From assembly GCA_963725665.1 (NCBI GenBank), contig CAVRZA010000004.1, positions 288,001 to 352,000 on the forward strand: DNA of 64,000 bases, read 5' to 3'. Below the pieces are notes generated by a model, which was not told the DNA's origin, did not search any database, and saw only the letters and a program-made list of their open reading frames with translations. This DNA comes from an uncultured Actinomycetes bacterium. GTDB taxonomy: Bacteria; Actinomycetota; Thermoleophilia; UBA2241. A program made the translations under genes and the position numbers. The stretch's first letter is position 1. Every line of letters begins with the position of its first letter. Positions 44,562 through 54,926 of this stretch are shown in pieces.

Positions 44562-44637
44562 GGGCGGCTAGCTCAGATGGGAGAGCGCCAGCTCGACAAG
44601 CTGGAGGTCGTTGGTTCGATTCCAACGTCGCCCACCA
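44562..44637 (+). tRNA. tRNA-Val(GAC)
   Basis: Full cloverleaf: acceptor GGGCGGC/GTCGCCC, anticodon arm CCAGC-TC GAC AA-GCTGG, TTCGATT loop, encoded CCA. Confidence 0.95.
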
Positions 44638-50188: not shown

Positions 50189-50396
50189 AGCGGTCTCGCG
50201 TTGGCAGTTCAGCGGACTCCGGCCTCCGCCCGTAAGCGCCGCAGCCCAGCTCTCACAGACTGCCCATGACTCCCGCCCAGCCTGGTGCTGATATGGAAGG
50301 ACCTGCTGTCAAGAAGGCAGGCGCAATCGACCTTGCCGGGGGCAGAGGATGGGTGGAGTATGGCGACGGCGGGGGGAGCGCGCCGGGCTCTGTCGT

Positions 50397-50576: not shown

Positions 50577-51653
50577 CTAGCTCTCCATCACCGCCAGGCT
50601 CCAGCACCAGCCGGCGAGCTCGCGGGCGACCGCCACGGCGGCGACCTTGGAACACTTGCCACGCTCATCGAAGCGCCGCCGGCGACGCTGCAGGCGACGC
50701 TCCGCAAGTCGCGCCCGCTCGCGCACCGTGCCCGCGGCGGCGGCGCGCGCGCGCTGCACGCGCACGCTTCTGCCCGGTGGCCGGCGCTGCTGCCAGGCGG
50801 CCTCGATGAGCAGGCGCCGCGCGTGGCCGTTGCCGGTCTTGGTGATCGCCCCCTGACGCCGCCTCGTCCCGGAGGACTGCTCGCAGGGCACAAGGCCGAG
50901 GAAGGGGCCCAGGCTGCGGCCAGAAAAGCGCTGCCAGTCGCCGATCTCGACGGTGAGCGCGAACGCGGTCAGCGTCGAGATGCCACGCAGACAGGTCAGG
51001 CGCCCGACGACCGGCGCCCAGGGCTCCTTGAGCGCCTCCGCGGCGATCGCCGCGTCGAGGGCGTCACGGCGATCGCGCGCGGCGCACATCGCCGCCAGCC
51101 CCTCCTCATAGGCGACCTGCAATGACGGCTCGCAGAAACGCTGGCGGGCGAGCCACAGCTCGTGTGTCTGTGTCCAGCTGTGCTCCTCCCAGACGATGCC
51201 CCGACGCAAAAGCAGCTTGGCGAGGCGGTGACGGTGGCGCATCAGGTCGCAGCGCGCGTCCTCGCGGGCGCGCACCAGGTCGCGGGCGGCCTCCTCGGCG
51301 AGATCGGGCACCCGTACCGCGACCAGCTCCTCGAGGCGCAGCAGGCGGGCCAGCCGCAGCGCGTCGCGGCGATCGGTCTTGACGCGCTCGCCGGGTGCGC
51401 GCGGGATGCGCGAGAGGGCCGCCACGAGGCAGCGTATCCCGGCCTCGCTCAGAGCGCGGGCCAGGACGTAGCCGGTTGGTCCGGCCTCGCAGGCGACCGC
51501 CTGCGGGCCGGGCTGCGCGCGCACCCAGCCGACAAGCTCCTTGGCGGGCACCGGTGCGGCGAGGCTGCGCACCTCGCCGCTAAGCCCGTCGAGCACTCCC
51601 GCCTGGACCGAGCGGGCGTGCACGTCCAGGCCGATGAACGAACGCTCATGCAC
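50577..51653 (-). CDS. IS110 family recombinase
   Basis: GLDVH, EAGPTG, KTDRRDA (DEDD), GLVP.EQSSG, ITKTGN; TAAGGAGG SD. Confidence 0.95.
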   Translation of the reverse strand: MHERSFIGLDVHARSVQAGVLDGLSGEVRSLAAPVPAKELVGWVRAQPGPQAVACEAGPTGYVLARALSEAGIRCLVAALSRIPRAPGERVKTDRRDALRLARLLRLEELVAVRVPDLAEEAARDLVRAREDARCDLMRHRHRLAKLLLRRGIVWEEHSWTQTHELWLARQRFCEPSLQVAYEEGLAAMCAARDRRDALDAAIAAEALKEPWAPVVGRLTCLRGISTLTAFALTVEIGDWQRFSGRSLGPFLGLVPCEQSSGTRRRQGAITKTGNGHARRLLIEAAWQQRRPPGRSVRVQRARAAAAGTVRERARLAERRLQRRRRRFDERGKCSKVAAVAVARELAGWCWSLAVMES

Positions 51654-51782
51654 ACCGTCGCCTCCTTACGGCCGCGGTCTGCCGTCGCGCCAGCCGCAAC
51701 GGCGACCCGCGCCAGACTATGCACCGGGGGCGACGGGCCGTTCCATATGGTCTAGGGTCCTCTGCAGAAGCAGGCAGTCTGT

Positions 51783-51821
51783 GCCGAACATCATCTACAG
51801 ACTGTTTAATCCTTGTTAGGC
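51783..51821 (+). other. Candidate attI or shortened attC at the head of the cassette array
   Basis: Ends in core site GTTAGGC; GCCGAAC 5' but no attC-like internal stem. Confidence 0.5.
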
Positions 51822-51830
51822 GGGGTAACC

Positions 51831-52298
51831 GTGGGGATCTCACTCCGGCCCGTCGCGGCAGGCGACCAACCGAGCATCGACCGCTGGGCGGCGGTGGCGG
51901 CCGACCACATGTCGCGCACACGTCCCTACGCCGAGGGCGCGGACCGTCACGACCCGGACCGCGGTCTCTTCTGGTATGTGATCGCCGACGGCGGCCGCGA
52001 CCTTGGCACCGTGTGGATTGAGCTGCCTCCGGGCTCCGACGAAGCGGTCCTGGGTGTGTTCCTCGGCGATGCGACGTTCTTCGGTCGCGGCATCGGCGCG
52101 GCGGCCATCGAGCTCGCCGTCGCCGAGTTCCGCGGCGCCCATCCGCAGTTGCCGGTCTCGCTGCGGGTGCGCCGCACGAACCAGCGTGCCATCGCCTGCT
52201 ACCGCCGTGTCGGCTTCGCGGTCACCGGCAGCGGCACCAAGTCGCTGCCCTCTGGCGAGGCCGTCCCCTACTACCGCATGGTCCTCGCGCCGTGCTGA
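51831..52298 (+). CDS. GNAT acetyltransferase (cassette 1)
   Basis: GRGIG, N.RAIACYRRVGF; starts 10 nt after GTTAGGC. Confidence 0.85.
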   Translation: MGISLRPVAAGDQPSIDRWAAVAADHMSRTRPYAEGADRHDPDRGLFWYVIADGGRDLGTVWIELPPGSDEAVLGVFLGDATFFGRGIGAAAIELAVAEFRGAHPQLPVSLRVRRTNQRAIACYRRVGFAVTGSGTKSLPSGEAVPYYRMVLAPC

Positions 52299-52325
52299 GC
52301 TACCCCTCGCGGTGTGCTCCGACCC

Positions 52326-52341
52326 GCCTAGCAAGCGCATC
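52326..52341 (+). repeat. 5' half of an attC site interrupted by IS110 copy 2
   Basis: GCCTAGC-AAGCGCATC, near-complement of cassette start GTTAGGC and similar to the attC at 54861. Confidence 0.65.
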
Positions 52342-53045
52342 ATTGGTGTCAGTCTCTCCCCGTGGGATCCCCTGGCACTCGTCAGGTAGCCTCGGACCCG
52401 ACGGCGGAGTGACCCAAAGCGTTTCTGTCGCCCCCGAGGGGCGGACCGTCAGCTGTATTGTCCCCCGCCGCCGGGATCCGAGGGGTCGCCGACGTGACCT
52501 GATAGGAGCCTGGCCGGAAGGCCCCAGCCAAGGCGTGTCCGCCGGCGGTCCCACTGAGATCGGCTGCAACCGACCAAGGGGGACTGAAGTGATCGTAATC
52601 GGGATCGACCCGCATATGAAGACCCATACCGCCGTGGCCGTCGACGCTGCGAGCGGGCGGACGCTCGCCGAGAAGACGGTGAGCAGCGACCCGCGCGGGC
52701 ACGAGGAGCTGCTTCTATGGGCACGCGCTCTCGGTCCCGAGCGCTGCTTTGCCATCGAGGACTGCCGCCACGTCTCCAGCCGGCTTGAGCGCCACCTGCT
52801 GCCCCGCGGCGAGCGCCTAGTGCGCGTGCCGCCGAAGCTGATGGCGGGCGCGCGCTCCTCGGCGCGCACTTACGGCAAGTCCGACCCCATCGATGCGGCC
52901 TGTGTGGCGCGTGCCGCGCTGCGCGAGCCCGACCTTCCGAAGGCCAGCCTCGCCGGGCCCGAGCAGGACGTGCGCCTGCTCGTCGACCACCGCGACGACC
53001 TCGTCGGTGAGCGCCAGCGCATCCAGAAACGCCTGCGCTGGAACC
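52342..53045 (+). mobile_element. Truncated IS110 element (left non-coding end plus RuvC domain only)
   Basis: About 250-nt structured leader, then IGIDPH, IED, GKSDPIDA; C-terminal domain and right end missing. Confidence 0.85.
52400..52550 (+). ncRNA. Predicted bridge RNA of IS110 copy 2
   Basis: Two loops each framed by GTGACC...TGTCC around an inner hairpin. Confidence 0.65.
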
Positions 53046-53425
53046 TGCAGAATGGCGCTATGTGTTTGCGTGGCATTATCCGCACGGATGAAGTTGGTGA
53101 CTATCGCTTCCGTAGTATCAAGCCAGCAAGCTACCCGATCACCGATGATGGGCCTGTCGGGGGATTGCTGCGAAAACTAGGCCGACATCCTTACCGTCCG
53201 GCCCATATCCACTTTATCGTCTCAGCCGAAGGTTATCGGCCAATCGTCACTCAGATCTTCGCGGAAGGCGATGAGTATTTGGAGTCGGATACCGTGTTCG
53301 GGGTCAAAGACTCGCTCGTGGCAGAGTTTGTTCGGGTGGATTCGGCTGAAGAGGCATCCCATTATGGGTTCCAGCCGCCGTTCTACAAAGTGGAATTCAA
53401 CTTCATCTTGGATAGAGCCAGCTGA
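52589..53425 (+). pseudogene. Chimeric ORF: IS110 N-terminus fused in frame to intradiol dioxygenase C-terminus (cassette 2 remnant)
   Basis: After RLRW the frame reads LRG..RTD..G.Y.F.SIKP.SYP..DGPVG..RPAHIHF; visibly lower GC after about 53045. Confidence 0.85.
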
Positions 53426-53442: not shown

Positions 53443-53512
53443 GCCGAACCAGCGCACGCAGTTGACCGCGCTCCGCTTCGCTCCGTGCGGCAACTGATGC
53501 GCGCCGTTCGGC
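53443..53512 (+). repeat. attC site (70 bp)
   Basis: GCCGAAC..GCGCAC-G-CAGTTG...CAACTG-ATGCGC..GTTCGGC imperfect palindrome with extra base. Confidence 0.88.
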
Positions 53513-53545: not shown

Positions 53546-54268
53546 ATGACTGGCTACTACACGAACAAGCTGTCCGGCAGCCGGCTGGAGCGCTGCTACG
53601 AGGTGGCGCCTACGCGCGTGAGGCAGTATCTCGAGGCGGAGATCCGCCACGTTCTTGAACGACTTCGGTCCACGGACTCCGTCCTCGAGCTGGGGTGCGG
53701 GTATGGACGAATCGCTCGGAGGCTCGCGACAGTTGCCCACCATGTCGTCGGGATCGACACGGCATCCGAGAGCCTCGAGCTCGCTCGGCGAATGCTAGAG
53801 CCCGGGGCATGGTGCGAGTTCATGCAGATGGACGCGCTCGATCTACGCTTTCCTGACTGCGCGTTTGATGCAGTCGTGTGTCTTCAGAACGGGATATGCG
53901 CTTTCGGAGTCGACCAGGAGGCTCTTCTTCGGGAGGCCCTCCGCGTGACACGTGAAGGCGGGATGGTGCTGTTTTCCACGTACACCGATGGGATCTGGCC
54001 CGAGCGCCTGGCGTGGTTTGAGGCTCAGGCGGCCGAGGGGCTGGTCGGGGCCATCGACTACACGGCGTCCCACAACGGCGTCATCGTCTGCGACGACGGC
54101 TTTCGTGCGGGACGAATGACCGCCGGAGACTTCCGCTCCCTCTGTTCTGAGATCGGTGTGGCACCGATGATTGCTGAGGTGGACGGATCGATTCTCTTCT
54201 GCGAGATCATCAAGCCGGGTGCTGCCCAACAGGGCGATGCATCTGACCGCGCAACGCGCTGCAGGTGA
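53546..54268 (+). CDS. Class I SAM-dependent methyltransferase (cassette 3)
   Basis: VLELGCGYG, VGID, FDAVV; 3' end runs into attC. Confidence 0.9.
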   Translation: MTGYYTNKLSGSRLERCYEVAPTRVRQYLEAEIRHVLERLRSTDSVLELGCGYGRIARRLATVAHHVVGIDTASESLELARRMLEPGAWCEFMQMDALDLRFPDCAFDAVVCLQNGICAFGVDQEALLREALRVTREGGMVLFSTYTDGIWPERLAWFEAQAAEGLVGAIDYTASHNGVIVCDDGFRAGRMTAGDFRSLCSEIGVAPMIAEVDGSILFCEIIKPGAAQQGDASDRATRCR

Positions 54269-54285
54269 TCGCCAGAGCGTTCGCC
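54224..54285 (+). repeat. attC site (62 bp)
   Basis: GCCCAAC..GGCGAT-G-CATCTG...CAGGTG-ATCGCC..GTTCGCC. Confidence 0.85.
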
Positions 54286-54357: not shown

Positions 54358-54600
54358 ATGACCAGTCTCACGGCGACAGAAGCGCGCAAGATCCTCTACC
54401 GGCTTCTCGACGAGGTGTCTGAGTCTCACGAGCCAGTCCAGATCACCGGCAAGCGCGGCAACGCCGTACTCGTGGGCGAGGATGATTGGCGAGCCGTCCA
54501 AGAAACGCTGCACCTGCTCTCAATCCCCGGCATGCGCGAGTCCATCCGGGAGGGCATGGCCACCCCGATCGATGAGCTCGACGAGAAGCCTGGTTGGTGA
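54358..54600 (+). CDS. yefM: Phd/YefM antitoxin (cassette 4)
   Basis: TATEAR..LY.L.D.V, PV.ITGKRGNAVL, ETL.L. Confidence 0.92.
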   Translation: MTSLTATEARKILYRLLDEVSESHEPVQITGKRGNAVLVGEDDWRAVQETLHLLSIPGMRESIREGMATPIDELDEKPGW

Positions 54601-54860
54601 GCTGGCGTCTCTTCTACACGAAGCAGGCGCAGCGGGATGCAAGGAAGCTCGCCGCCGCTGGCCTGAGGCCGAAGGTGCAGGTGCTCCTCGATCTCCTCGC
54701 CGAGAACCCCTATCAGGCACCGCCGCCCTTCGAGAAGCTGGTCGGCGACCTGTCCGGTGCGTACTCGCGGCGAATCACCATCCAGCACCGGCTCGTCTAC
54801 CAGGTCCTGGACGACGAGCGAGCGGTGAAGGTTCTGAGGATGTGGACGCATTACGAGTAG
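54597..54860 (+). CDS. yoeB: Txe/YoeB toxin (cassette 4)
   Basis: EKLVGDL.GAYSRRI..QHRLVY, WTHY. Confidence 0.93.
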   Translation: MSWRLFYTKQAQRDARKLAAAGLRPKVQVLLDLLAENPYQAPPPFEKLVGDLSGAYSRRITIQHRLVYQVLDDERAVKVLRMWTHYE

Positions 54861-54926
54861 GGCGAGCAGGCGCATCGCGCAGATGCCGCGCTGCGCGCGG
54901 CACAGTTCACGCGCAACACGTTGGCC
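54861..54926 (+). repeat. Degenerate attC site (66 bp)
   Basis: GGCGAGC..GCGCAT...TGCCGCG/CGCGGCA...ACGCGC-AACAC-GTTGGCC directly after yoeB stop. Confidence 0.7.

Follow-up and report, generated by a model that had tools for sequence, protein, structure and literature searches.

A truncated IS110-type element whose leader probably encodes a two-loop bridge RNA directed at integron attC sites

We describe here the remnant of an IS110-type insertion sequence (IS) whose leader very probably encodes a two-loop bridge RNA targeting integron attC sites. The remnant lies in a 64,000-nucleotide stretch of DNA from an uncultured Actinomycetes bacterium (GCA_963725665.1, contig CAVRZA010000004.1, positions 288,001 to 352,000), hereafter called the window. 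Judged by its relatives, the segment at 52343-53050 represents the left ~700 bp (708 bp kept) of an element of ~1.34 kb when complete, and this copy is a dead, truncated, immobile relic. Comparison with the relatives establishes the anatomy of the element, the covariation in its RNA, the attC identity of the flanks, and the clade structure. A preliminary description, made from the window alone, had proposed attC targeting; it was largely right for the family, and the case is visible only through relatives.

To our knowledge, the only elements described to date as targeting attC by means of a guide RNA are of the IS1111 type and come from Proteobacteria. Here an IS110-type lineage with its RNA on the other side of the gene appears to have reached the same attC target, which would be a case of convergence. 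The family also provides a natural case of target-loop reprogramming, for which a sister lineage serves as internal control. Its 45 natural guide/target pairs, apparent one-base core, and clear handshake position should be useful for bridge-RNA design rules.

Relatives and element ends

No second copy of the element was found in the window's genome by blastn and tblastn of the assembly, and the element ends were therefore taken from other genomes. A homologue of the 154-amino-acid (aa) transposase fragment is present at E<=1e-20 in 39 of 401 genomes of the same class, the closest being 78-84% identical. When public genome contigs were scanned with a full-length relative of 359 aa, 65 further loci were found, nearly all of them in metagenome-assembled genomes labelled Coriobacteriia, Anaerosomatales, Actinomycetes, or Actinomycetota; the few labelled 'Gammaproteobacteria' sit on contigs of ~1.3 kb. 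Full-length relatives carry both PF01548 (E 2.9e-17 in locus L011) and PF02371 (E 1.7e-18). The leaders of seven loci align end to end, with likeness starting at TTRRTGTCAC. The right end is GACATAGGAGCAA, 17 nt past the stop codon, and complete elements are 1296-1364 bp long.

A loose anchor returned 87 matches, of which 47 with a recognisable left end were kept and 40 were dropped as anchor-only; a second copy at L066, without the 3′ frame of loop 1, was also dropped. Two of the 47 have flanks shorter than 11 nt and were excluded, leaving 45 copies with a usable left flank. Almost always, this flank contains an R″-like heptamer with AAC at its end, followed by 9 nt that fit NNGCGCWTC; usually one more base precedes the element. 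That base is C in 24 copies, G in 11, A in 3, and T in 1 and is missing in 6. In the 33 copies with a right flank, the first base after the terminal GGAGCAA is C or G. Left and right bases are equal in 22 of these (C/C in 19, G/G in 3); the others are G/C (5), A/C (1), or missing on the left (5). Complete relatives such as L011 have a TTGACA hexamer at a distance of 11 nt from their right end (GTTGACATAGGAGCAA), a possible −35 of a circle-junction promoter; such a promoter was set aside, because any −10-like hexamer of the left end would be poorly spaced. A truncated relative, L033 (genome G055), has a run of at least six GTGATC hexamers at the transposase start.

The window copy, on the + strand, can be read against this pattern. 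The attC 5′ arm (52326..52341) comprises an R″-like GCCTAGC (52326-52332) and the 9-nt left target AAGCGCATC (52333-52341), and it aligns with the R″ plus 9-nt left flanks of six related copies and with empty attCs of related arrays. Position 52342, an A in the window and mostly C or G in relatives, corresponds to the one base found at both junctions of complete relatives and is the predicted crossover position. The preliminary description had placed the element directly after an attC half-site; the half-site stands, and the start moves to 52343, one base past the flank then noted. The left end and 246-nt leader (52343..52588) open with TTGGTGTCAG, the first 4 nt of which, TTGG, are the right-donor sequence; likeness among the seven loci begins here, and the leader was aligned across 44 copies.

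The transposase fragment (52589..53050, GTG start at 52589) covers aa 1-154 of ~359 and contains the DEDD/RuvC-like domain alone (PF01548, E 1.5e-17). It is 83-84% identical to full-length relatives, the nearest by identity being the copy in G104. The C-terminal Tnp domain is absent, with the break at ~53050. Likeness to full-length relatives ends at 53049-53051, where GC falls to 0.60 in a GC-rich genome (~0.68 GC, 3.73 Mb, 12 contigs); the right end is therefore lost, as had been supposed. The stump is fused in frame to a 3′ fragment of a dioxygenase gene (53052..53425, + strand; PF00775 profile positions 71-181 of 182). A later deletion would have removed the element's 3′ ~640 bp, the remaining attC, and the start of the next cassette. 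In sequencing run X1 (DNA), a 151-nt contig joins an attC-like start (GCAGAAC AAGCGCATG AACCTGACG) directly to window positions 53111-53218, and the dioxygenase fragment thus has another left neighbour in a related organism.

Bridge RNA and guide/target matches

The predicted bridge RNA (52371..52552, + strand) comprises a 5′ hairpin (52371-52386) and two internal loops, the first target-binding and the second donor-binding. The structure was tested on the 44 aligned leaders as a 5′ hairpin plus two modules, each running from an outer stem through a GAC/GUC clamp and an internal loop to an inner stem. It has 48 pairs with 92.5% of cells paired, and double-sided changes are found in 19 of the 48, versus 8.0±1.4 after shuffling (0/500 shuffles) and 3-11 in slid controls. 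This covariation bears out the two leader loops that had been recognised in the window from their frames, which lie at exactly 52409-52414 and 52494-52499 (GTGACC) and at 52459-52463 and 52536-52540 (TGTCC).

The left target guide (LTG), the last 9 nt on the 5′ side of loop 1, was compared with the 9-nt left flank in the 45 copies. Agreement is at least 7/9 in 41 of 45: 17 copies match at all positions (9/9), 12 at 8/9, and 12 at 7/9; lower matches are 6/9 (2 copies), 5/9 (1), and 1/9 (1). The mean is 7.8/9, versus 6.1 in 2000 shuffled pairings (maximum, 6.67). Variable positions of guide and flank covary, at −9 (A/A 18, C/C 19) and at −3 (T/T 19, A/A 14, G/G 5). In the window, the LTG is AAGCGTTTC (52417..52425, + strand), which matches the flank AAGCGCATC at 7/9. 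The attC targeting read into this loop by the preliminary description is thereby upheld for the family.

In the 33 complete relatives, the 3′ side of loop 1, read as its reverse complement, gives the final 2 nt of the IS, then the crossover base and ~6 nt of the flank on the right. So read, it opens with AA, the element's last two bases, in 30 of 33. The right target guide (RTG) matches the crossover base plus 7 nt with a mean of 5.91/8, versus 5.25 shuffled (maximum, 5.76; n=33). The window's RTG and 2-nt handshake (52448..52457, + strand) include the previously noted GTCAGCTG (52448-52455) and have the reverse complement TA-C-AGCTGAC; the right flank itself is lost in the window. The attC segments that had been compared with this motif, CAGTTGAC and CATCTGAC, are present at 53459-53466 and 54240-54247.

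Loop 2 matches the element's own ends. Its 5′ side, the left donor guide (LDG) ATAGGAGC, equals the right end minus the final AA, and its 3′ side, CYAA or TTAA, corresponds to bases 1 to 4 of the element in reverse complement. The right donor guide (RDG) covaries with those bases across copies (TTGG/CCAA, TTAA/TTAA, and TTAG/CTAA). In the window, the LDG (52502..52509, + strand), conserved in the leader alignment, predicts a lost right end of ...CATAGGAGCAA, and the RDG CCAA (52528..52531, + strand) is the reverse complement of TTGG at 52343-52346.

Target loop and phylogeny

A sister lineage in G276 and G038, with 66% identity over the 154-aa fragment, has the same element ends, donor loop, and leader architecture as the attC clade. 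Its target loop is a different one (ATTGGGTTGC / AACGAATG) that fits the lineage's own flanks; these consist of a repeated sequence, not attC, close to the 3′ end of a tRNA. More distant relatives (to ~47% identity) keep the donor-loop motif, with a different loop 1 and different flanks. A quick maximum-likelihood tree was made from 52 transposases and an outgroup, the window copy being left out as too short; in this tree the 25 attC-labelled rows form one clade (Shimodaira-Hasegawa-like approximate likelihood ratio test [SH-aLRT], 100; one change on the tree). In three copies of the sister element in G276 (L043, L046, and L047), the leader is split within the donor loop by a repeat of ~536 bp, which also occurs elsewhere, inverted.

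attC sites and integrons

The flanks of the clade copies are integron attC sites. Uninterrupted sites in which the same R″ plus 9 nt is joined to right-flank sequence occur in arrays of G153, G173, G176, G286, G056, and G104; in G286, for example, the empty site matches the right flank of the occupied site there. The joined flanks of occupied sites form hairpins, with R′ located 40-100 nt beyond the right end and R″/R′ complementarity of at least 5/7 in 26 of 30, a count biased by picking R′ as the best complement. Three of 33 sites have no GTT candidate. The attC core consensus is RYYYAAC for R″ and GTTRRRY for R′.

A generic attC scan (AAC...GTT ends plus a stable fold) gave 13 matches on the + strand and 15 on the − strand. 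These fell almost all inside ordinary genes of the GC-rich genome, so the scan was replaced by a lineage-trained covariance model (R1), built from 19 natural sites. Applied to 60 loci at E<=0.01, R1 gave 61 matches. Every one is on the strand that encodes the transposase, and they are spread over 26 of the 41 clade loci, versus 0 of 19 loci of relatives with other targets. The preliminary description had proposed checking whether the flanks of homologues are attC sites and covary with loop 1; on both counts they do.

Three sites in the window were found with R1; all lie on the + strand, each where a cassette open reading frame (ORF) ends. An intact attC at 53443..53512 (38.2 bits, E 2.6e-7) is a training-set site whose hairpin was also found by the generic scan. 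The site at 54224..54285 (17.2 bits, E 0.043) ends a methyltransferase cassette (ORF 53546-54268; Pfam methyltransferase). The third, at 54861..54926 (18.6 bits, E 0.02), comes right after a Phd/YoeB-type toxin-antitoxin pair (54358-54860; PF02604 plus PF06769), which is one cassette of the array. The cassette with the interrupted attC carries a GNAT acetyltransferase ORF (51813..52298, + strand; PF00583, E 1.2e-8) that ends 28 nt 5′ of the half-site. Further R1 matches in the window's genome (31.9-57.4 bits) lie at C1:72944-73030, C1:73568-73672, C1:545236-545321, and C11:457079-457165.

Integron integrase genes (intI) were scored against the NCBIfam cut-off of 265 bits. All five host genomes tested exceed it: G056, G286, G153, and G173 reach 459-480 bits, and the fragments in G176 add up to 335.6 bits. 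Of 14 control genomes, none does. Integrase genes lie beside element-bearing arrays in G173 (C4:619761-620705) and G153 (C1:972292-973236), with 459-473 bits and in the same direction as the cassettes. Across the class sample, 52 of 401 genomes are above the cut-off. At E<=1e-60, intI is found in 43 of 79 genomes of the window's family and 12 of 61 of a second family, versus 0/79, 0/76, 0/28, and 0/44 in four other families. Integrons are common in the host family, as had been predicted for attC sites in this host group. Sedentary integrons are thus frequent in one environmental Coriobacteriia family, in a group thought nearly integron-free; the available text of the IntegronFinder 2.0 preprint reports a RefSeq survey with no complete integron in Actinobacteria.

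Proposed mechanism and comparison with known systems

We infer RNA-guided chemistry, a one-base core, and an effect on cassette recombination. On the model of IS621, the DEDD recombinase and the RNA would unite the circularised element with attC. The 5′ side of the target loop would specify the 9 nt after the R″ core by repeating them and the 3′ side the next ~7 nt by complementarity, while the donor loop would specify both ends of the element itself, ATAGGAGC on the right and TTRR on the left. Strand exchange would occur at a single C/G base, at or beside the first unpaired base of the attC stem in folds. Insertion, always in the attC 5′ arm and cassette-oriented, should block attC folding.

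These features can be set beside IS621, as it is described in the accessible text of Durrant et al. 2024 (PMC11208160) and Hiraizumi et al. 2024 (PMC11208158). There, the left half-site is given in sense by the 5′ side of a loop and the right half-site in complement by its 3′ side (PMC11208160), and handshake guides pair with the donor's last bases after strand exchange (PMC11208158). Like IS621, the present family has a DEDD plus Tnp recombinase in its full-length members, a structured RNA region of ~180 nt upstream of the transposase gene with two internal loops, loop 3′ sides with complementarity to the right half of the target or donor, a handshake position of 2 nt that would pair with the donor's last bases, and no terminal inverted repeats. 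Unlike IS621, which has a CT dinucleotide, it has one base (C/G) common to the junctions, cleavage positions not being readable from sequence. Its left donor guide ends 2 nt before the element end, its target is a structured integron attC, and its hosts are Coriobacteriia and other Actinomycetota, three further differences from IS621 as described there. Also unlike IS621, its RNA matches no Rfam family: none was found at gathering score, nor at E<=1 on 52300-52620.

The hosts of IS1111-attC elements are Proteobacteria. By Siddiquee et al. (PMC11187229), IS110 and IS1111 are told apart by which side of the gene carries the long non-coding region and by whether subterminal inverted repeats are present, and ISKpn4, ISPst6 (EF648212.1, 1889-3601), and ISPa25 are given as attC-targeting elements of IS1111 type (citing Post & Hall 2009 and Tetu & Holmes 2008). 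The present family resembles this group in its DEDD, IS110-superfamily transposase, in its single position and orientation near one attC end, and in encoding what appears to be its own guide RNA. It differs in that the predicted RNA lies upstream, with 17 nt after the stop codon, whereas the seekRNA of the IS1111 group lies downstream of the transposase gene (PMC11187229). The subterminal inverted repeats described for that group in the same source also find no counterpart: 26 inverted-repeat pairs were listed for L011, and none joins both ends.

The layout, as judged from architecture, is therefore IS110-type, not IS1111-type, in agreement with the earlier proposal of an IS110 lineage with an upstream RNA in the attC niche. 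A separate lineage converging with the IS1111-attC group is suggested by this architecture rather than by a joint tree. No paper joining an IS110-type bridge RNA with attC was found in our literature searches, and the supplementary target tables of PMC11208160 may contain cases.

Contrary evidence and alternative explanations

Several observations weigh against the proposed attC-targeting RNA. The window guide differs from its own flank at 2/9 positions, and a match of at least 7/9 arises somewhere in the leader in 578 of 2000 leader shuffles; the window match alone is thus at chance level, and significance comes through the relatives only. With the right end and right flank gone, the LTG (7/9) and the RDG (CCAA/TTGG) are the only guides checkable in the window. 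The copies are kin, so the shuffles overstate independence, and the signal seen for the RTG is a modest one. The two junctions have a single base in common, as against the CT dinucleotide of IS621, and it is missing at the left in 5 of 33 copies. Exceptions include L040, which adjoins intI and matches its flank at 1/9, and L061, which has the 9 nt without R″. Exact RYYYAAC fits 19 of 30 sites and GTTRRRY 13 of 30, a count biased by the choice of R′, and R1 was trained on arrays of the same lineages. Of the 25 attC tree labels, 8 were set by hand (3 short flanks, 2 variant R″, 1 9-mer without R″, and 2 flankless rows labelled by kinship). The window's genome has no intI above the cut-off (best, 85.9 versus 265 bits), which makes the window array an attC cluster without an integrase. 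The only hint of expression is a set of contigs covering the RNA region in three metatranscriptome runs from three studies, one per run (52377-52621, 52397-52552, and 52418-52552), with 4-9 differences and hence from relatives; this hint is weak, as contigs show neither strand nor ends and DNA may be present.

A conceivable, though rather improbable, alternative is that the recombinase reads the folded attC hairpin or its extrahelical base, the RNA match being secondary or one half of a dual sequence-plus-structure check. Minimum-free-energy folding leaves either the last base of the 9-mer or the crossover base unpaired, between two stems, at 14 of the 26 reconstructed sites and 9 of the 19 natural empty ones, and every insertion is in one arm and one orientation. 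A dual match of sequence and structure is reported for another IS110 in the abstract of a 2026 preprint (10.64898/2026.03.19.712850). However, guide and flank covary position by position, and the sister lineage, with a different loop, uses a different, non-attC site; sequence pairing is therefore at least necessary. Structure may nevertheless contribute to target choice. The absence of this base from the opposite arm of the palindrome could explain the fixed arm and orientation. It is tempting, if speculative, to go further: the extrahelical attC base might itself be the one-base crossover core and alone fix arm and orientation. This would be the same asymmetry as in strand choice by the integron integrase, possibly acting on folded, single-stranded attC, and the element would be a dedicated parasite or a lock of cassette arrays in the host family.

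It is unlikely that the junction at ~53050 is an assembly chimera and that the genome holds an intact copy. The assembly is of metagenome type with 12 contigs, repeats invite misjoins, and contigs placed from four sequencing runs leave 53036-53079 unbridged, so that the deletion junction is neither confirmed nor refuted; uncovered parts say nothing. The best share of the stretch in any public run is 0.21. Against a chimera, the junction lies within a contig of 653,833 bases, blastn and tblastn show no further part of the element in the assembly, the reading frame is kept across the join, and composition changes sharply there.

There is very little to recommend reading the flanking palindromes as a REP-like genome repeat. 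REP sequences are often targeted by IS110-family elements, according to the accessible text of PMC11187229; the window's genome is without intI, and the R″/R′ consensus fits in part only. Yet the sites stand behind ORFs in one orientation, as in G173, where at least 15 sites follow intI directly within 13 kb, in one orientation and behind single ORFs or ORF pairs. They are absent around the control relatives, and intI exceeds the cut-off in 5/5 host genomes versus 0/14 controls.

Least credible of all is a true left end farther upstream, with R″ plus 9 nt belonging to the element and loop 1 pairing with the element itself: the conserved block does begin ~16 nt left of 52343 in all seven first-aligned loci, but empty sites join that block directly to right-flank sequence, a matching R′ lies beyond the right end (at least 5/7 in 26/30), and identical guides stand beside different 9-mers (L062 versus L063; L070 versus L071), which places the 9-mer in the target, not the IS.

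Neighboring features

The window contains another IS110-family element (50577-51653, − strand), with ends at ~50281 and 51757, just before the first cassette. It lies between the inverted repeats CACAGACTGCC (50254-50264) and GGCAGTCTGTG (51773-51783) and has the opposite layout, with ~115 nt upstream and ~330 nt of conserved non-coding sequence downstream of the transposase gene. Relatives at 63-70% identity occur in other, partly conserved contexts. Its nearest plasmid matches are IS110 elements of Rhodococcus and Pseudonocardia, the top ones being actinobacterial IS110 only. A tRNA gene at 44562-44634 (63.6 bits) is the only Rfam match in the window.

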